DNA from: a virus
Strand: one strand, 5' to 3'
IMG/VR virus record: IMGVR_UViG_3300027736_002225
Length of the DNA: 64,000 nucleotides
Shown here: in pieces, positions 44,685-54,004 of the stretch
Layout: each line of letters opens with the position of its first letter
Numbering within the stretch: the stretch's first letter is position 1
Made by a program: the position numbers and the translations under genes
The notes under the pieces: model-generated
The model's input: the letters and a program-made list of their open reading frames with translations, nothing else
What the model was told of the DNA's origin: nothing
Databases searched by the model: none

Positions 44685-45158
44685 TTAATCTTTAAATTCG
44701 TTATCTTCTCTATGTCCTACACGCATTGCCATGTTAGCATCAGTTTCTCTTACTTGCACTTTGCAACACCATACACGATCCTTTTCACCATAGTTAGGTA
44801 AGAAAATTGTGTTTATGTATTCATAAAGAAAATCGGCAATGCCCTCACATCCAGTCTTTTCAACTTCTGTAATCTTTGCTAATTTTAATGTGCCTAGATG
44901 CAATAGATGTTCTCGCATTGGATCATCCTGTGCAACTAACAATGTGTGGTCAAACCAGTCTTCAAGTAGACCTTTAAGTGGTTTTAGTCCACCAAAGTCC
45001 ATACACCAATTGCGGGCATCTAATGTATCACACTCAAATTCTAAATGGAATGAAAGTGCATATCCATGAATTAAATTGCAATGACTATCTGCACGCCATT
45101 GTCTATATGCTACGGGACCAATCTGATTATAAGTTTTTGTAGAAATGTATTTTGCCAT
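44685..45158 (-). CDS. queD: 6-carboxy-5,6,7,8-tetrahydropterin synthase QueD
   Basis: HCNLIHGY, DFGGLK, FDHTLL, GCE, RET. Confidence 0.85.
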   Translation of the reverse strand: MAKYISTKTYNQIGPVAYRQWRADSHCNLIHGYALSFHLEFECDTLDARNWCMDFGGLKPLKGLLEDWFDHTLLVAQDDPMREHLLHLGTLKLAKITEVEKTGCEGIADFLYEYINTIFLPNYGEKDRVWCCKVQVRETDANMAMRVGHREDNEFKD

Positions 45159-45164
45159 GTTTAT

Positions 45165-45259
45165 TCTCCTATGTTATCATAGGCGGCGGAATTTATAAAG
45201 CGGGACGATGCCGGTAGACCGCTATGTGATATATTATATATTACTTAAACATAGCGGTC
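45165..45259 (-). promoter_or_regulatory. switch-like structured leader of queD
   Basis: Pseudoknot, an SD-overlapping hairpin and an 11-bp inverted repeat; see findings. Confidence 0.55.
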
Positions 45260-45261
45260 AA
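45233..45261 (-). promoter_or_regulatory. sigma70-type promoter of queD
   Basis: TTGACC-N17-TATAAT. Confidence 0.65.
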
Positions 45262-46314
45262 TACATTAGCAGAAAAGAATTTTTCCGTTAAGTACGATGC
45301 TTGTTTGCGAACGTGATACTTATATTGATCGTGATTATTCATGTATTGAACAATTTTATAACATAAGTCTTGTCGATGCACTTCGTATGCTTCAAATGAT
45401 TCTGTCCATTCACTAGGATATTTGAACATATCATTGTACATTTCCGTATAGGATAAACGATCTGGCACCATAGGAATAGCATCTACAATGGCACCTTCGT
45501 AACAACTAATACCCAATGTTTCTTGTAGGTTTGCACTAAATACAATCTTAGCACGACCTAGCAGTTTGTGATATTCATGTTTATCTAATTGCGTATCTTG
45601 ACAAACAACAAACTCATATTGAGGTAAATGTTTAGCCAAGTCTCGGAAAATTTCAACTTGTTTTTCTGGTGCAAGTCGATGAGGGAACAAAATTAATTCG
45701 CGCTTCGGAGTTGTATTATAGTTTTCTAATGTGTCAACCATATATTCCATCGGCCAACCTGAGCGAACAATCTTACCTTGTTCAATCATAGTGATCTTCC
45801 ATTCGTCATCCACTGTTTCGCTAAATGTCTCAGCAAACAAATCAATATGAAAATCAGTAGCAAAATAGTTATGGTCAATAGCGTGAAAGAAACTTTGTTC
45901 GGCATGTCTCACCCAAGGAGCATCTCCAATGAGACGACCTAAAAAGTCTTGAGGATCATAACTGCCAGCGTGCCATAGTGCGTGAATAGTTACAGGAATC
46001 TGTAACAGCTCACTCATGTATTTTAAATTAATAATGCCAGGATGCCAAGCGTCAGTAAATAGAAAGTGATCACCAGCATTAATGGATCCGCTACAAAACA
46101 GGCGACCCATCTGCTCAACTTGACTAGATTTGTATATATTAGTCCCGCCAAAATTAAGGAAAGCACCAGGGGTAGTAACACTAGGAATATTAGTAGGTCC
46201 GCATATAACTTCAATATCCGCTGTCTTTTTAAGTAATTGGGGTACATGATATTTCCATTGTTCAGTGTATCGTGTGTCTACTGCCTCTAAATCAACAATA
46301 AATATTTTAGCCAT
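45241..46314 (-). CDS. GT-B glycosyltransferase
   Basis: FPHRLAPEK, ANLQETLGISCYEG (E-x7-E), PDRLSY. Confidence 0.75.
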   Translation of the reverse strand: MAKIFIVDLEAVDTRYTEQWKYHVPQLLKKTADIEVICGPTNIPSVTTPGAFLNFGGTNIYKSSQVEQMGRLFCSGSINAGDHFLFTDAWHPGIINLKYMSELLQIPVTIHALWHAGSYDPQDFLGRLIGDAPWVRHAEQSFFHAIDHNYFATDFHIDLFAETFSETVDDEWKITMIEQGKIVRSGWPMEYMVDTLENYNTTPKRELILFPHRLAPEKQVEIFRDLAKHLPQYEFVVCQDTQLDKHEYHKLLGRAKIVFSANLQETLGISCYEGAIVDAIPMVPDRLSYTEMYNDMFKYPSEWTESFEAYEVHRQDLCYKIVQYMNNHDQYKYHVRKQASYLTEKFFSANVLTAMFK

Positions 46315-46729
46315 GTGTTTGTTCAAAGTGAATTCTGCAACCGTTTTCGCCATCTTCTGATACTTCAATTACATAAGCACGTCCAGGCCATTTTGCAATT
46401 AATTTATCATATAGATCGTTTGCCATCATTTCACATGATTTATAATCCAATTGTAATGTGCCATCGCTATACCAGCGCTCCATAATTCTTTTTGCTTGAA
46501 TAAATTCAACATCTCGATTGTCATGAAATACTTCCATTTCGACCCGAAAATGGAACATATGCCGATGGCGATCTGCAAGAAAACTTACATCAAGCCAATG
46601 ATCTTCTGGGACTCCAAATCGACGTGTTGCCAATGATGGATCTGTTGCGGCATCGGGGTAACGATGAATGCCTTCTTTCTGAAAGGTAACCCAAATAAAA
46701 CTACTCTTTTTAACAATACTAGTATTCAT
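46307..46729 (-). CDS. QueD-like T-fold protein (candidate DpdL CDG decarboxylase)
   Basis: EGIH, HRHMFHF, SCE and VSEDGENG motifs parallel QueD; second paralog in the cluster. Confidence 0.55.
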   Translation of the reverse strand: MNTSIVKKSSFIWVTFQKEGIHRYPDAATDPSLATRRFGVPEDHWLDVSFLADRHRHMFHFRVEMEVFHDNRDVEFIQAKRIMERWYSDGTLQLDYKSCEMMANDLYDKLIAKWPGRAYVIEVSEDGENGCRIHFEQTHG

Positions 46730-46739
46730 AATATAATCC

Positions 46740-48026
46740 TTATGCAAATAAATTTTCTAATGACATCCGAGGCTGATGGCTTACAGATTCAGATTCCATA
46801 TATTTACCAACGTGCTTTTCCCAATGAGAAAAGTCTCCAATATCTTTAACTTCAAACAATGTAGCATACTCATTTTCGCAACCCTTATCTCTACAAAATC
46901 TAAGTAACTCGTCTTTAGATTCTAATAGGGTTGTAACATCAAGTGTGAAATTATGCACATTTGTCAATATGAAACAAAGACGTGCTTTCATAATGTCAAT
47001 AAACTTGCCGCCATTTTCAAGATACTTACCTACAGCAATGTTCATTAATTTATGATATTCTTCTGGAGTATATTCGGTACCACAAACACTATTGATTTCA
47101 TCTACAACTGTTCTATAGATGTTAGAATATTCTCTGCCCATTTTTACAGATGAGCCGCCATAACCATGTCGTGTTTTTTTACTATACGAGAAATAAAACA
47201 ATCCATTATCTAATGACATTGAATGTGTTGTAGAATCATAAGAGATTTCAATGTTCTCATACATTCCAGTCTGACTAAAAACCATATAGGGAAGCATACG
47301 ACGCAGTGCGCCTACCCCTAGAATGTGAAGATGAAATGGTTTCTTAAAGGGCATTACCTTAACATAGAATGCTCGTTTAACATCTTCAAGTTGCCCAGTA
47401 CCTAGTGCAGCAGATGCCATTGACACACCGCCGATACGATCATGATATGGTGCAGTGATTTCTTCAAGTAAAATATTTGCCCACTCAGCATAAGTCTCAT
47501 GACAAGCACCTTGAATGATTGCGAAAGGTCGACAATCACTTTTCATTTCAATAAACTTTTCAATCTGAGATTTAATATTTTGTCCCGTTTGCTTGGCATA
47601 ACTAGCAAAATTATCTCGGTCAAAATATCTACCCTTAGTATCAAGCTTTGCAGACTTGCCACTTGCATTAGTAATTATTACTGGGATCTCATCAAAGGAC
47701 ATTCCAATGTCTGCATGGGATGCTTGATTCTCATAAACGCTATTACGAACTTCTGGCGAATTAGGAATGCCACGTGTAATAATTTGCAGACCGCCAGAGT
47801 CGGCATGTATATTTTTAATCGCGGGTCTAAATTTTTGTAGACGTTTTCCAAATTGTTTTTCAGTAAACCCGTTATACAATAATGAGAACTGATGATTATT
47901 CATATTATGAACAGTCTTACCAATAAGGTCATTGATCATCTGCAATACTGCAGGATCATTACATTGTTCTGCACCAAGACGTAAGTACGCCGGTCCAGAA
48001 ATTACATATTCCATCTGTCTGCTCAT
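46740..48026 (-). CDS. dpdA: TGT-fold DNA-guanine transglycosylase (DpdA-like)
   Basis: ADSGG, SFDEIP, IIQG, HLHILGVG, SYDSTT motifs; lies inside the folE/queD/queE cluster. Confidence 0.75.
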   Translation of the reverse strand: MSRQMEYVISGPAYLRLGAEQCNDPAVLQMINDLIGKTVHNMNNHQFSLLYNGFTEKQFGKRLQKFRPAIKNIHADSGGLQIITRGIPNSPEVRNSVYENQASHADIGMSFDEIPVIITNASGKSAKLDTKGRYFDRDNFASYAKQTGQNIKSQIEKFIEMKSDCRPFAIIQGACHETYAEWANILLEEITAPYHDRIGGVSMASAALGTGQLEDVKRAFYVKVMPFKKPFHLHILGVGALRRMLPYMVFSQTGMYENIEISYDSTTHSMSLDNGLFYFSYSKKTRHGYGGSSVKMGREYSNIYRTVVDEINSVCGTEYTPEEYHKLMNIAVGKYLENGGKFIDIMKARLCFILTNVHNFTLDVTTLLESKDELLRFCRDKGCENEYATLFEVKDIGDFSHWEKHVGKYMESESVSHQPRMSLENLFA

Positions 48027-49390
48027 TCGAATAAACTTTCTAAAGTGCTTGAGGTATTTTGTTCATTGGGAACAAAATTTTTATCTTTTGATAGATAAGT
48101 GTGATTGTCTGTATAGATTATATTATACTTGTGCTTGTTTGTCAATACAGAACGGACATCATCAATAGATAAATCTTTTCTATTTAGATCAGTTATATAC
48201 TTTTTGTACTGAACCGTTTCGTATTCGTTAATTTTTGCTTTGCTAGAATTAGACTTTGTTGGTTTGAACAAATCAAATACATTAAACCATTCTCCAACAC
48301 CATTTAAGTCCATGGTCACTACGCGTTCTAATGCGCCAGTATTGTACCAATCAAACGGGCTTTTGTATTGTTCATACAATTTAAGTATTGTACTACTAAC
48401 ATCTTTTTTATCTACGCTAAAAAAATCTGTACCATTAAAGTTTTCTAACCAAGACATTCCTTTAAGTGCAACTGTTGGCATATGTCCAATACATTCATAG
48501 AATGCTAAGCCAAAACTTTCTCGTATTGCGGGATTATAAGCAACTCTAGCAGATGTTATAAAATCAACTTTTTCCTGTCCATATATCTCTGAGCGAATTT
48601 CAAATTTAGCATTAATTTCCTTTAACGCTGCTTCAAATTTTTTCGCACCAGTATCATTTGTAATAATTTTTGCAGGCAATTTTGTTTCTGCAATCATACG
48701 AACAAATTCCTCAGGATTCTTCCTTGGCTCCCAGCGACCAATCCATAATACACCTTCTCTAGATTTAGTATGAGGAGACAGCAATTCTTTTTCCGTCATT
48801 TGTATAGGTGTATAGTATGCGTCTTTACCTGACAATTTAATCTCATCAACATTTCTACGTGTTTGTGTGCCAATATAAATGCCGTTTACATCCATCAACT
48901 TAATAAAAAATTCATTGAAAGAATCTGAGAATTTGCTTTTTTGAGGACTGTCTTCCATAAAGACCAAATTCTCGTGATGCGTATAATATATGACTTGTAC
49001 TGAATCTTGAATAGATAGGGAATAGATTGCGGGAAATGATTCCACGGTGTTACAAATAACTACATCGTATAGATTGTCATTTAGAGCAGTCATAAAACAT
49101 TCTCTAAAATTAATCATTTTTTCAAAGTTATATGAATCCTCAAACATAAAAGTTTTGGCGTGTTTACTATAACTAAGTGGCTCTTTAGGTGCAATAACAT
49201 TAGCACCTTTAGATTGAAGATATGCACTAAAGTCTTTATTGGATGCCGGTTTATCCAATATAATATCAATTTTTATTCCAATAACAGAACAAGTCTCTAC
49301 AAAGGATTTTGCAAATTGTCCGATGCCACCATATGGAATTAAATGCTGATCGCTAATACAAAAAGCAATTCTCCTGTTGTAAATATTCAT
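48023..49390 (-). CDS. GT4-like (GT-B) glycosyltransferase
   Basis: GGIGQF, IGRWEPRKN, RESFGLAFYE (E-x7-E). Confidence 0.8.
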   Translation of the reverse strand: MNIYNRRIAFCISDQHLIPYGGIGQFAKSFVETCSVIGIKIDIILDKPASNKDFSAYLQSKGANVIAPKEPLSYSKHAKTFMFEDSYNFEKMINFRECFMTALNDNLYDVVICNTVESFPAIYSLSIQDSVQVIYYTHHENLVFMEDSPQKSKFSDSFNEFFIKLMDVNGIYIGTQTRRNVDEIKLSGKDAYYTPIQMTEKELLSPHTKSREGVLWIGRWEPRKNPEEFVRMIAETKLPAKIITNDTGAKKFEAALKEINAKFEIRSEIYGQEKVDFITSARVAYNPAIRESFGLAFYECIGHMPTVALKGMSWLENFNGTDFFSVDKKDVSSTILKLYEQYKSPFDWYNTGALERVVTMDLNGVGEWFNVFDLFKPTKSNSSKAKINEYETVQYKKYITDLNRKDLSIDDVRSVLTNKHKYNIIYTDNHTYLSKDKNFVPNEQNTSSTLESLFE

Positions 49391-49391
49391 A

Positions 49392-49901
49392 TCAATTACC
49401 CAAGATTTTAATTAAGTGTTTTGTTTGATGCATTGCGTCATCCAATGCATTGTGATATGTTCCTTGCCGTTCATCAGCAGGAATCCATTTGAATAATGCC
49501 TTTACAGTTCTGTAGCAACGATCGTCCCATGGATGCCATGGTGGTTTTCTGCCTGTATTGAAATAAGCATTTCCAAGAATAGTATTATCAAATACTGCAC
49601 CATTGCCCCACAAAGGAAGACTCTTTGGACCAAACCAAATTTCGAATTTGTCTAGTGCTTCTTGTAGTGAGATGTTGTTTTTTGTTAACTCTCGGAATGC
49701 TTCTTTGTTTTGCTTTGACCACCATTCAACAGTATCCTTGGCAATATGCAGGCCTGCTTCTTTGCATGACTTTATATCAATAGTGCAGTAAAACGTATCC
49801 AGTATTTTATCCCCTTCAAATTTTACTGCACCAATGGAACAAATTGCCGCATTTGATCTTGTTGACATTGTCTCCAAATCAACCATTACGTTTATAGTCA
49901 T
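49392..49901 (-). CDS. DEDDh 3'-5' exonuclease (DexA-like)
   Basis: MVDLET, GNGAVFD, HNALDDA. Confidence 0.85.
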
Positions 49902-50587
49902 TTTGAACGGGCGATGCTTAAGAATTCATTTCGTAGTGCAGGATCAGTTTTAAATCCGCCACCTAATTTACTTGTAACTGTAGAGCTACCAGTATCTTCT
50001 ACGCCTCGGCTCTTAACACAGTAATGCTGAGCATCAAGCATAACTGCAACATTATCTGTTTCCAAGATAAATTGCAGGGCATGGTAAATTTGTTCTGTCA
50101 AGCGTTCTTGAATCTGAGGACGCTTGCTAAAGTATTCTACGATACGATTGATTTTACTCAATCCAAGAACTTTATCTTTTGGGACATAAGCAACAGTTGC
50201 CAATCCATCAATAACTACAAAATGATGTTCACAATTACTTTGGACATTAACATTGCGCTCAACGACCATTTCATTATATTTCATCTTGTTATCAACTGTG
50301 GTACATTTAGGGAATGCGTCATAATCAAGTCCCCAAAAGATTTCATTGACATACATTCGGGCAACACGTTTTGGAGTATCACATAAACTATCATCTTCTA
50401 AATCAAGGCCCAGCACTCGCATAATTTCTGAAAAGTGAGACTCAATTACTTCAATCTTTGTTTTGCGATCAAGATCTAATCGAGTATTAGGATCTAATCG
50501 GGTAGGAGTCTCGACTCCCATTGCAACTAAATGCTGATGAACTTTTTGCCCCAATTCTGGGTCTGTTTTTGTCTTGTTATATGACAT
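49898..50587 (-). CDS. folE: GTP cyclohydrolase I
   Basis: [29 protein letters not shown]. Confidence 0.95.
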
Positions 50588-50651
50588 TTGAATCCTTCCT
50601 TACACGGATATGATGATTGAAAATTTTGTTACCTTTGTGTAACATTATTAT

Positions 50652-51509
50652 TTATGTTCCCCACTCATTCTTAAAAAGTGGTACTTGTAAACGATCGCTA
50701 TATCGAAGACCATTCTTCATTGCCATTTCTGCAACCTTTCGATTGTTCATAGCATAAACGCTTTCGACACCGCCTACCGGCATCAAATAAACAGGACCTT
50801 TAAACCCTGCAGATTTATATAGTTCAATTGCTTCCATTGCTTCTTCAGCATCTTCTTCAGTTGCAACTACAAACTTAAGATAAGTGTATCCAACGTCTTG
50901 ATATGCTGATACAATGTCGGGGCAAATTGCTTCTTCCCATTTTTCGCCGCTGACACTTAATTTTGGACTAACAGAAAATGTTAGTGCATTATATCCTCTG
51001 TCTTTACGACCAAGAGACCAATTAAGAAGAAATTGTCTGAATTCAGATGACAATGCCTGTGTACCATTTGTTTCAAACGTAATCTCTTTTAAAGATTTCA
51101 TTTTTTCATTATCTAGAAGATCTGGATACGATCGTTGCCAACCAAGTAATGGTTCGCCGCCCGTTATTACAAGATGTTCGTCTTCCCATTTCTTGTACGG
51201 AAGTATATCCATAATTGTATCGGCAATGTTATCAGTATCAAGTACAGGGCTAAGATGCTTAAAACGAGGATCCCAGCTAGCGTAAGAATCGCACCCTGTA
51301 CTAACAAGAGGCAAATCTTTATAGGAAAGAAACTTACGTACGTCAGCCGCGATATAATCAACTTCATTGCTAAATTCCCCTTTTGGCATTCCAAATCCAC
51401 TACAAGTGAAGTTACAACCAAATGTACGAAGAAAAACACTAGGTACGCCCATGTAGCGGCCTTCACCTTGTATACTATAAAACAATTCTGCAACTTTAAG
51501 CTTTGCCAT
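50652..51509 (-). CDS. queE: 7-carboxy-7-deazaguanine synthase QueE (radical SAM)
   Basis: FYSIQGEG, FLRTFGCNFTC...CDS, ITGGEP, FETNGT, SPK. Confidence 0.9.
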   Translation of the reverse strand: MAKLKVAELFYSIQGEGRYMGVPSVFLRTFGCNFTCSGFGMPKGEFSNEVDYIAADVRKFLSYKDLPLVSTGCDSYASWDPRFKHLSPVLDTDNIADTIMDILPYKKWEDEHLVITGGEPLLGWQRSYPDLLDNEKMKSLKEITFETNGTQALSSEFRQFLLNWSLGRKDRGYNALTFSVSPKLSVSGEKWEEAICPDIVSAYQDVGYTYLKFVVATEEDAEEAMEAIELYKSAGFKGPVYLMPVGGVESVYAMNNRKVAEMAMKNGLRYSDRLQVPLFKNEWGT

Positions 51510-51537
51510 CAAGACTCCAATAATTTAATTAACACTT

Positions 51538-51567
51538 ATTATATAGTAAATTAGTCATCCATGTCAA
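51538..51567 (-). promoter_or_regulatory. sigma70-type promoter of the queE cluster
   Basis: TTGACA-N18-TATAAT. Confidence 0.6.
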
Positions 51568-52165
51568 GAGGATTGTCTGAATCTATTTCAACTTTTTTAA
51601 CCTTTTTAGGGATATTTATGTTGCGTTTTTCAATATCAATATTGTCCATTTGCCGTTTTAAGTAATCCAAAAATTGGTGACTAAATTCACCGTTATCATG
51701 ATCTTGCAAGATCAAGGAATCAATATCCATATTCTCAATCATCTTATACTTAGTGGCCTGTTGTTTCTTTTCCTTTTGAATTCTGCGAATAAAGGCAAAG
51801 TAAATAATCTGAGTATAATATGCAAATGGATTTGAAGATTTACTTGGGTCAAATTTTTGTACTGCAGTTAAACAATTTTCAATCCCGTCCGAAATCATAT
51901 CATCTTTAAAAGTATAATTAATAAAATTAGATTTGTATGAAAGGTGTGTAGCAATCTTTATAAAACATTCGCCAATATATCTAGTAACAACGGGGGTTTC
52001 TTCTCCTCGTTCTTTAGCAGCATCGACTTGTTCTTTATATGCTATTAAGGCTTCTAAAAACTCTTTATTATTTACATAATGTGCAGTAACCGAAGGTTTC
52101 TTTTCCTTAATGGAAAGTTTTCCTTCGTCTGATTCTATTATTCCCATAGTCGTGTCTTTCATCAT
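51551..52165 (-). CDS. 55: late-transcription sigma factor (gp55)
   Basis: HYVNNKEF, DMISDGIENC, NPFAYYTQI, RRIQKEKKQ. Confidence 0.95.
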   Translation of the reverse strand: MMKDTTMGIIESDEGKLSIKEKKPSVTAHYVNNKEFLEALIAYKEQVDAAKERGEETPVVTRYIGECFIKIATHLSYKSNFINYTFKDDMISDGIENCLTAVQKFDPSKSSNPFAYYTQIIYFAFIRRIQKEKKQQATKYKMIENMDIDSLILQDHDNGEFSHQFLDYLKRQMDNIDIEKRNINIPKKVKKVEIDSDNPLDMDD

Positions 52166-52523
52166 TTTCTTCTTCTAAAATTGAGTCTCTTATTTCATCT
52201 GTTACATCAATTGCGTTTTCTTCTGCTTCTTTACGGGCATCAAGATATTTAATATAATTTTCTGTAAGTTCTTCGTTGGCTTTTGCGTATGATATAATAT
52301 TTCGAACAGGAACCTCATAAAATTCTTCTTTGGTTAATGCAAACCAAGGAGCAAGTGTATACGATTCAATTACAGCTCTTCCAACATTTGATCTAATTTG
52401 ATTTAATACCAAAGGATCTTTTATAAAAAGACTAAAGGTATTTTTTAAATCTATTACTTCATCCGTTTTACATACTATATCTTCACCACTATTTAACTTC
52501 AATATTTTATAACTTAGGATCAT
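52107..52523 (-). CDS. conserved T4-like phage protein (Sm-like fold predicted)
   Basis: ILKLNSGEDIVC start; between uvsW and gp55. Confidence 0.65.
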   Translation of the reverse strand: MILSYKILKLNSGEDIVCKTDEVIDLKNTFSLFIKDPLVLNQIRSNVGRAVIESYTLAPWFALTKEEFYEVPVRNIISYAKANEELTENYIKYLDARKEAEENAIDVTDEIRDSILEEENDERHDYGNNRIRRRKTFH

Positions 52524-54004
52524 TGTAATTGAACTTTTATAAGTTTGTAGTCAAAATGTTCATCATTGTAAATTTTTATCCGTTCAATCATATGAAGTAA
52601 CGTAAAGTTCTTTTTAGATTTCCAGGTTAAATCATCGCCTATATCATATAGATTGCAACTGTCTTTGTCTTTGGTTGTTCTCAAACCACGTCCAATAGAT
52701 TGCAAATTTCTTATCCGAGATTTAGAAGGAGATGCAAATACAATATTATGCAAATTCTTAATGTTAATCCCGGTAGAGAATGTTCCATATGAAGCCACTA
52801 TTATAGCATTATTTTCGAGTTCTGTCAATGCTCGAATTTTTTCTCTTTGCTCCGTATCTGTTCCCCCATAAACAAAAAATACTTTTCTATTTTCTGCTTT
52901 GGCATTAATCATTTCATATAGATTTTTGCCATGTTTTTCTACATACTGAAATAATACAAGACTGTTACCTTCTTGTTTAAGAGTCAAATTTCTAATAAAT
53001 TTGTTTCTTGGTTCGTATTGAACAAGAAAATCCATTTCTTCTTGATACGTTTTACCCTTCATAGCTTTTTTAATTTCATCCGGATAATCTAATATCAAAT
53101 TATAGATTTTTAAATCAGATAATGTTTTGCTTGTAATAAGTTTCTTAGTTGTTGTGACTTTATAAACAGGACCAAAGATACCTTCAAGAACTAACTTATG
53201 CGTTTGTGTACCATCCAATGTACCAGTAGTCCCTACTCTATAAGGAGCGTCTGGGCATTTATTTAAAATTCCAGTTAAAGATTTTGCTTTAAATTGATGA
53301 GCTTCGTCTCCATAAACAACTTGGAATTTTTCAAAAAATTGTTTTGGTAATTTATAGATAGATTGCCAGGTACTAATAACAACATTACAATCTGTAGATT
53401 TTTCATGCCCGCCATAAATGCGATGGCAATGGGATGCTGCATCCCATCCATTTAAACAAGAATAATCTCGAAAATCTGAAAACATCTGTTCTACCAAAGA
53501 TGTTGTAGGTACAATAATTAATTGCCTTCTGTCAAATTCATAGTGCCAACGAATTATACAATAAATTATTAAAGATTTTCCAGATCCGGTGGGAGAAAGT
53601 AATAACCTTCTACCGTCGCTAATTGCTTTATGTACCGCTTCTATTTGATATTCTCTAATTGGAATCGGTTCGCCTTTTGAGCCAATGTTTAACTTTTCAC
53701 AAAATTCTTTTACAGATTCAAAAGTACATTCATCTGCAGTTTTTTCATACTCAGATAAATCTACAGTGTATTCTCTTTCTTTTGCAAAATGTTCAACATA
53801 CTCTTTTAAGCCAACATAAAGCTCTTTAGTAAACATAGAAAAAAGCCTGACACGGCCATCCCACATCTTTGATCTATACAAAGGGTGAAATTTTGCACCA
53901 GGTACTTCGAAGGAAAAATGATTATTTAATTCCTGAGCAATTGAAGGCTCAGCATCAATATTCAAATATACTTCATTCTTTTTTCTTATTTTTATATCGG
54001 CCAT
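52520..54004 (-). CDS. uvsW: SF2 helicase UvsW
   Basis: SPTGSGKS, DEAH, TGT, QSIGRGLR. Confidence 0.95.
   Translation of the reverse strand: MADIKIRKKNEVYLNIDAEPSIAQELNNHFSFEVPGAKFHPLYRSKMWDGRVRLFSMFTKELYVGLKEYVEHFAKEREYTVDLSEYEKTADECTFESVKEFCEKLNIGSKGEPIPIREYQIEAVHKAISDGRRLLLSPTGSGKSLIIYCIIRWHYEFDRRQLIIVPTTSLVEQMFSDFRDYSCLNGWDAASHCHRIYGGHEKSTDCNVVISTWQSIYKLPKQFFEKFQVVYGDEAHQFKAKSLTGILNKCPDAPYRVGTTGTLDGTQTHKLVLEGIFGPVYKVTTTKKLITSKTLSDLKIYNLILDYPDEIKKAMKGKTYQEEMDFLVQYEPRNKFIRNLTLKQEGNSLVLFQYVEKHGKNLYEMINAKAENRKVFFVYGGTDTEQREKIRALTELENNAIIVASYGTFSTGINIKNLHNIVFASPSKSRIRNLQSIGRGLRTTKDKDSCNLYDIGDDLTWKSKKNFTLLHMIERIKIYNDEHFDYKLIKVQLQ

Follow-up and report, generated by a model that had tools for sequence, protein, structure and literature searches.

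The 82-nt intergenic leader of a queD-like gene in the window (the whole 64,000-nt stretch of viral DNA analysed here, from the IMG/VR record IMGVR_UViG_3300027736_002225) is almost certainly a conserved, structured and queD-specific cis-regulatory RNA. It includes an H-type pseudoknot, the putative aptamer core, of about 42 nt (45182-45223, minus strand), and this knot very probably competes with a helix that sequesters the ribosome-binding site (RBS). We lean, with some caution, towards regarding the leader as a small-molecule riboswitch candidate that switches ON; small-molecule binding, a guanine-like ligand face and the direction of control are what we infer.

The queD-like gene and its neighbourhood

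The leader lies on the minus strand between a glycosyltransferase-like ORF of 375 aa, which ends at 45241, and the queD-like ORF, which starts at 45158. Its sequence had been quoted exactly in the initial annotation, and the assignment of the downstream ORF to queD made there agrees with our searches: the gene (44685-45158, minus strand) encodes a 157-aa protein of the PTPS family (Pfam PTPS, 3e-15; phrog_2389 'QueD-like', 1e-40), which scores under the cut-off of the TIGR03367 model. A phmmer search of the PDB sequences with this protein matched no solved structure. The window protein and all motif-linked homologues carry SHCxLxHGY, and the counterpart motif in E. coli QueD is CxxxHGH. This difference suggests that one canonical zinc histidine is replaced in the motif-linked QueD-like proteins.

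Upstream of queD, genes on the same minus strand encode, in this order, a QueE-like radical SAM protein (50652-51512), FolE (49898-50587), an exonuclease (between FolE and the GT4-like gene), a GT4-like protein (48023-49390) and a protein with weak, distant Tgt/DpdA-like similarity (46740-48026); PF01702 is carried by part of the look-alike clusters. A small gene without an assigned function follows, and then the glycosyltransferase-like gene that directly precedes the queD leader. Neither QueC nor a clear PF01702 match was found in four related contigs. Based on the neighbouring genes (45241-51512, minus strand), queD is probably part of a 7-deazaguanine DNA-modification cluster; the base may carry a sugar, as the presence of two glycosyltransferase-like genes hints. 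Among the genes of this cluster, the motif precedes queD alone.

A phosphoribosyltransferase gene was found beside queD, queE and folE in the locus L111 (574-1095) and in Synechococcus phage BUCT-ZZ01 (L210); with such a neighbour, the deazapurine base may be salvaged into nucleotides. In addition, a late sigma factor gene (51551-52165, minus strand; phrog_234, 9e-58) adjoins a large helicase gene (52520-54004) in the window. A perfect 12/12 TTGACA-N17-TATAAT site (48117-48145, minus strand) precedes the Tgt-like gene by about 90 nt and falls within the end of the GT4-like gene.

Pseudoknot architecture, covariation and distribution

All parts of the knot are given on the minus strand. P1 is a helix of 5 bp in which AGCGG (45219-45223) pairs with CCGCU (45199-45203), and its top is closed by two invariant G-C pairs. 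The pairing was evaluated in A2, an unfitted MAFFT alignment of 101 distinct sequences, with GC/CG and AU/CG/UA covariation in P1. Based on the A2 columns, L1 (45213-45218) is composed of UCU, with an invariant C and a nearly invariant last U, and the variable spacer ACC. The 5′ strand of P2 (45206-45212) includes GGCA (P2a), the invariant U 45208 and the C-G side (P2b), and the 3′ strand (45182-45188) includes the P2b side, the invariant C 45186 and CGCC (P2a). According to the A2 test, P2a is formed by 45209-45212 with 45182-45185, and P2b by 45206-45207 with 45187-45188; the invariant U.C mismatch (45208/45186) separates them. L2 (45204-45205) consists of a U and the unpaired C 45204, which adjoins the top of P1 and is invariant (101/101 sequences), and the 10-nt L3 (UUAUAAAUUC, 45189-45198) carries the invariant A residues 45196, 45194 and 45192 and an invariant UC.

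Across the family, P2 has two pairs near the pocket (C-G and R-Y), the U.C mismatch and 3-7 further variable pairs. The P2a helix of the window is weaker than usual, with the three pairs GGC/GCC and A 45209 opposite C (A.C) beside the U.C mismatch. The pseudoknot drawn initially, AGCGG/CCGCT plus CGGC/GCCG, was correct in P1 and in the H-type fold and misplaced in the register of P2: CGGC/GCCG would occupy G41, which pairs invariantly with C21 throughout the family, in which the register is GGC/GCC followed by C-G and G-C past the U.C mismatch.

In A2, 93.9% of the cells were paired (39-56% with the partners slid), the covariation score was 0.547 against at most 0.125 in the controls, and both sides changed in 8 of the 12 pairs. 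None of 500 shuffles matched the values observed in A2, and none of 500 equalled those of A1, a further unfitted MAFFT alignment (93.3% paired, covariation 0.515), the shuffle statistics being inflated by the relatedness of the sequences. P1 was paired in 99.8% of the A2 cells and was found unaided by RNAalifold, which does not predict pseudoknots. P2b was recognised because 'UC-R' of L2 tracks 'UC-Y-GC' of L3. Its C-G pair is present in 101/101 sequences, and its R-Y pair, a position that the search pattern left free for any combination, occurs without exception as A-U (167 distinct cores) or G-C (31). Furthermore, 16 positions of A2 are invariant and mostly unpaired, including C 45204 and the three alternate A residues of L3; G8, G9, C24, C25 and C26 are invariant in the 101 sequences. 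Covariation among homologous phage queD leaders, proposed as a check in the initial annotation, was thus found for P1, P2 and P3.

Folded alone, the short leader is similar to its shuffles (z = -0.68), and the long form that includes the inverted repeat departs from them (z = -3.4). It should be noted that the pseudoknot, the hairpin and the promoter position are judged to be beyond chance because of the comparison with relatives, not because of single-sequence thermodynamics.

When IMG/VR was searched with the QueD protein, 80 loci (83-100% identity) were obtained, and the leaders of related loci showed the same architecture with other helix sequences. R1, a covariance model built from P1 alone, gave a single match in the window (61.5 bits, 45173-45227) and matched 64 of the 80 QueD-fetched loci, each time immediately upstream of queD; the motif occurs once per phage contig of 230-263 kb. 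Two pattern scans that were independent of QueD, for the AGAGG-type and the AGCGG-type P1, each hit at least 120 contigs. Among the matches listed, the total reached at least 299 IMG/VR loci with at least 198 distinct aptamer cores, and the next ORF was PTPS/QueD-like in 77/78 and 112/117 readable cases of the two scans. The identity of the motif-linked QueD proteins to that of the window goes down to 31%. The motif is therefore abundant among aquatic phages, being present in at least about 300 contigs.

The next protein of L127, an apparent exception, has a weak PTPS match, and the other exceptions examined contain one inserted gene (methyltransferase, cupin or unknown) directly followed by queD; on these grounds, non-QueD genes as partners of the motif were rejected for the examined cases. 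One extra gene between the motif and queD, encoding a methyltransferase, a cupin or an unknown protein of 58-293 aa, was observed in L269, L262, L215, L308/L317, L275 and L067/L073. Such inserted genes would share the same control.

A blastn comparison of two leader types with 50,697 phage records produced no match beyond chance. R1 found no motif in the cultured phages Acidovorax ACP17, Xanthomonas X1 and BUDD, Synechococcus BUCT-ZZ01 and Achromobacter Motura; these five all carry QueD homologues, and their queD overlaps or abuts its neighbours. In cellular genomes, the AGCGG pattern gave 3 matches in 596 Gb, all without a QueD-like ORF downstream. When R1 was applied to these three, two were unreported at E <= 0.01 and one reached 18.8 bits, and none of the three was recovered by a whole-genome R1 search, so that they are best taken as chance matches. 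The motif was not found in 151 genomes from the family of one matching MAG (labelled Comamonadaceae), and a full-text search of the literature found no description of it.

Expression platform and promoters

The P3 hairpin CCUAUG-AUAA-CAUAGG (45168-45183, minus strand; -5.4 kcal/mol) contains the AGG of the Shine-Dalgarno sequence AGGAG (45166-45170, minus strand). In the free fold, GCCG (45184-45187) pairs with the UG of the start codon AUG (45156-45158, minus strand) and the GC of codon 2. The hairpin over AGGAG described in the initial annotation is thus present, and it recurs in related leaders with a varying loop length. The earlier reading, which recognised that the hairpin blocks the Shine-Dalgarno sequence, overlooked that it shares nucleotides with P2: CC 45182-45183 is common to the 3′ strand of P2 and P3.

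Three platform designs recur in the family. The first, which is that of the window, is CCUAUG/CAUAGG over the Shine-Dalgarno sequence; the second is ACUCC/GGAGU over the same element; and the third, UGYCAUC/GAUGRCA or AAGUCAUC/GAUGACUU, covers the start codon and codons 2-3. Of 140 distinct leaders, 133 have a minimum-energy platform fold in which the 3′ nucleotides of P2 are paired to the region of AUG (84 leaders) or of the Shine-Dalgarno sequence (49 leaders). The duplexes between a leader's own tail and RBS have a mean of -8.14 kcal/mol against -5.84 for crossed ones, and 0/5000 permutations were as low, a statistic that relatedness of the sequences likewise inflates. The compensatory changes extend to codon 2 (UGCCAUC/GAUGGCA, AAGUCAUC/GAUGACUU, CAUU/AAUG), which is GCA in some leaders versus ACU or ACA in others, with CAUC/GAUG versus CAUU/AAUG as a further exchange. 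In the free fold of the window leader, the unpaired probability of the Shine-Dalgarno AGG is 0, and the UG of AUG is paired. With the P2 strands made unavailable, as a model of the bound aptamer, the positions of the Shine-Dalgarno sequence are unpaired with a probability of 0.42-0.95, those of its AGG with 0.42-0.94.

Since P2 and P3 draw on one shared strand, 3′ in P2 and 5′ in P3, a ligand-stabilised knot should switch translation ON. We suggest the following course of events. Transcription driven by the sigma-70 promoter would begin 2-4 nt ahead of P1 and place the aptamer at the 5′ end of the mRNA. In the free state, P1 and P3 would form and the translation of queD would be blocked; in the window, P3 would comprise CCUAUG/CAUAGG over the Shine-Dalgarno sequence and GCCG/UGGC over AUG. 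A bound ligand would lock P2, P3 would melt, and the Shine-Dalgarno sequence and AUG would be exposed.

The sigma-70-type promoter of the window consists of the -35 hexamer TTGACC (45256-45261, minus strand) and the -10 hexamer TATAAT (45233-45238, minus strand), which together match the consensus in 11 of 12 positions, with a predicted start near 45225-45227. The initial annotation had proposed that this TTGACC-N17-TATAAT promoter (45261..45233) starts transcription at the leader, and both the nearest relative and divergent lineages agree with it. L001, the nearest relative, with an identical upstream gene and a QueD of 100% identity to that of the window, has a perfect TTGACA-N17-TATAAT in the same place. 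Family-wide, -10-like hexamers concentrate 0-14 nt ahead of P1, and both hexamers are present in 29 of 140 distinct upstream regions; many of the 29 are TTGACA-N17-TATAAT in lineages with a QueD only about 40% identical. Because divergent lineages keep a near-consensus promoter at the same distance, we consider it a recurrent feature.

A second promoter-like site was observed inside hairpin-type leaders. In 87 of 105 distinct leaders of this type (e.g., L002:2806-2900, L003, L010), the loop of P3 is TGCTATAAT, and TTTACA in L3 lies 17 nt upstream of it, which makes up an extended -10 promoter-like site. This internal site would start an aptamer-less mRNA at the Shine-Dalgarno sequence. The window and L001 have the upstream promoter in its place. 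The two sites are almost mutually exclusive (internal only 85, upstream only 4, both 2). As a consequence of the internal site in these 87 leaders, part of the conservation could act at the DNA level.

Regulatory readings and comparison with known RNA families

As is usual for riboswitches, a covarying aptamer, invariant unpaired nucleotides, a metabolic gene downstream and a mutually exclusive platform are found together in the leader. The candidate ligand may be a 7-deazaguanine-pathway base, a pterin or guanine. To our knowledge, riboswitches are seldom carried by phages, and every validated preQ1 class turns genes off. Whether the motif is a new phage-confined riboswitch class, the first preQ1-like fold to turn translation ON and one that senses a guanine-faced metabolite, appears to us evenly balanced. 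In that case, CDG, preQ0, dihydroneopterin triphosphate (the substrate of QueD) or guanine from DNA transglycosylation would be the candidate metabolites, and the switch would set the timing of the committed step in viral DNA hypermodification. Counted against a riboswitch are the weak P2a of the window and the folding of the short leader, which is no better than that of shuffles, as well as ON control of a biosynthetic gene without an obvious product-feedback logic.

The motif is bound to one gene, that for the committed step toward the 7-deazaguanine bases in phage DNA, which serve the escape from restriction, and is apparently opposite in direction to its closest structural relative. The identity of the ligand would reveal the phage signal for starting DNA hypermodification. 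If the riboswitch reading is true, a compact ON aptamer of about 42 nt would become available for the toolbox, and the motif would test the re-use of a preQ1-I-like pocket with a longer P2; the alignment supplies natural compensatory mutants.

Alternatively, the leader could be a protein-binding translational operator, whose knot would be stabilised or unfolded by QueD itself or by a regulator. The 16 invariant, mostly unpaired positions and the exclusive RBS helix suit such an operator equally well, and a precedent exists in T4-type phages, whose RNA operators include a pseudoknot for gene 32. We nevertheless consider this unlikely, as the motif is kept across QueD proteins that are only 31-45% identical and across unrelated neighbourhoods, with queD as the sole constant partner, and as the pocket is laid out like those of pseudoknot aptamers for small molecules, in that a C is left unpaired between the helices and an A-rich strand may run along P1.

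The element could also act as a structure without a ligand, setting the level or timing of queD as a 5′ stabiliser, a kinetic folding device or a thermosensor. Its frequent position at the extreme 5′ end of the transcript would fit such a role. However, the invariant loop nucleotides, the U.C mismatch and the exception-free R-Y pair exceed the needs of a stabilising hairpin, and the competition of P2 with P3 persists through three differing platform designs; we therefore give little credence to a purely structural role.

A further model, put forward in the initial annotation, is built on a perfect 11-bp inverted repeat with a 5′ arm within the end of the upstream gene (45249-45259, minus strand) and a 3′ arm over P1 (45217-45227, minus strand). 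It proposes that the repeat lets read-through transcripts trap the 5′ strand of P1, so that only promoter-proximal transcripts would be switchable; in a variant, the repeat would be an operator flanking the -10 hexamer. The repeat exists as described, and its word is found only once within the window. It folds at -15.9 kcal/mol, covering P1, and, by rough arithmetic, the chance landing of a repeat arm on P1 is unlikely, with few such repeats in the window. The proposed blocking of the aptamer in read-through transcripts, however, is not supported by the relatives: the arm differs at 3 of 11 bases in L001 despite the same upstream gene and promoter. Over 144 leaders, the mean upstream complementarity to P1 is at the shuffled level (-5.28 vs -5.44 kcal/mol), and the window alone stands apart, at -19.2 kcal/mol where the leaders average -5.3. 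None of 119 scorable AGCGG-type leaders among the matches listed comes close to its complementarity. Based on L001 and the 144-leader comparison, the repeat was rejected as a family feature; it is private to the window phage, and a role for it there, in either form of the model, is highly doubtful. An intrinsic terminator, which would need a G+C-rich hairpin and a U-tract behind it, was also rejected for the repeat, as the scan found none, the loop spans 21 nt, and UACCGGCA follows as the tail. The third conformer of the initial annotation, a competing CATAG/CTATG pairing, was treated in the same way: the complementarity is present and is limited to the window and L001, and it was rejected as a family feature. 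Another perfect 11-bp inverted repeat, AAAACCCTCGG-N12-CCGAGGGTTTT, with the shape of a two-way terminator, is located at 158-191.

Rfam 15 was scanned at permissive thresholds with a 2.5-kb region, the window segment 45140-45245 (106 bases) and 11 diverse loci. For the window segment, cmscan at E <= 10 gave four unrelated weak matches only, with RF00522 absent, and no RF00522 match was obtained for the 2.5-kb region and the leaders of the 11 diverse loci. The matches were far under the gathering scores (e.g., 'freshwater-2', 12.3 vs 49.9 bits). The Rfam check on the preQ1 classes that the initial annotation had called for thus left the leader unmatched, and the loose likeness to preQ1-I aptamers noted there agrees with the H-type pseudoknot layout.

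The preQ1-I riboswitch (RF00522; B. subtilis queC, T. tengcongensis) is a small H-type pseudoknot that precedes a 7-deazaguanine-pathway gene. Its P1 has 5 bp with G-C at the top; a conserved C directly 5′ of the P1 3′ strand is left unpaired, an A-rich strand follows P1, and the P1 loop pairs with the 3′ tail as P2. The 3′ strand of this short P2 includes or adjoins the Shine-Dalgarno sequence or a terminator element, which results in OFF control. The phage motif resembles it in the 5-bp, G-C-topped P1 with an unpaired conserved C 5′ of the P1 3′ strand, in the A-rich strand after P1, in the loop-to-tail P2 and in the 7-deazaguanine-pathway gene downstream. C 45204 occupies the place of the ligand-pairing C of preQ1-I, and by analogy it may have the same role. 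In contrast to the 3-4 bp of the preQ1-I P2, that of the phage motif is about twice as long, with at least 7 positions and an invariant U.C mismatch. L3 has 10 nt with alternating invariant A residues and UC, whereas that of preQ1-I has about 6-7 nt; the L1 spacer varies in length, unlike in preQ1-I; and the core is about 42 nt versus 34. The P2 3′ strand of the phage motif is the anti-RBS strand and predicts ON control, while preQ1-I is OFF. Also, unlike preQ1-I, the motif was found solely in uncultured phages. From this sequence comparison, the motif appears to be a distinct variant rather than a member of preQ1-I. That it is an ordinary OFF-type preQ1-I riboswitch missed by the Rfam model is very improbable: it does share a P1 of 5 bp, a CCC ahead of the 3′ strand of P1, an A-rich tail and a queuosine-pathway gene, but RF00522 is silent at E <= 10 on the 106 bases and on the 11 loci, P2 is about twice as long with U.C, and its 3′ strand is the anti-RBS strand and not the Shine-Dalgarno sequence.

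The preQ1-II and preQ1-III riboswitches belong to the same pathway and likewise control translation through a pseudoknot aptamer. They have other helices, with the Shine-Dalgarno sequence sequestered inside the ligand-bound knot, and no Rfam match to them was obtained for the phage motif. The guanidine-III and fluoride riboswitches are pseudoknot aptamers that turn genes ON, and the phage motif is similar to them in its compact knot, the bound form of which would free the RBS or prevent its sequestration. Their sequences, conserved nucleotides and gene associations are unrelated to those of the phage motif, with no Rfam match. Finally, a recoding pseudoknot, which would be expected a few nt after a slippery site or the stop codon of an ORF that extends past it, was rejected, as many lineages have a promoter placed after the upstream gene and ahead of the knot, the upstream genes differ, and queD has its own Shine-Dalgarno sequence and AUG.
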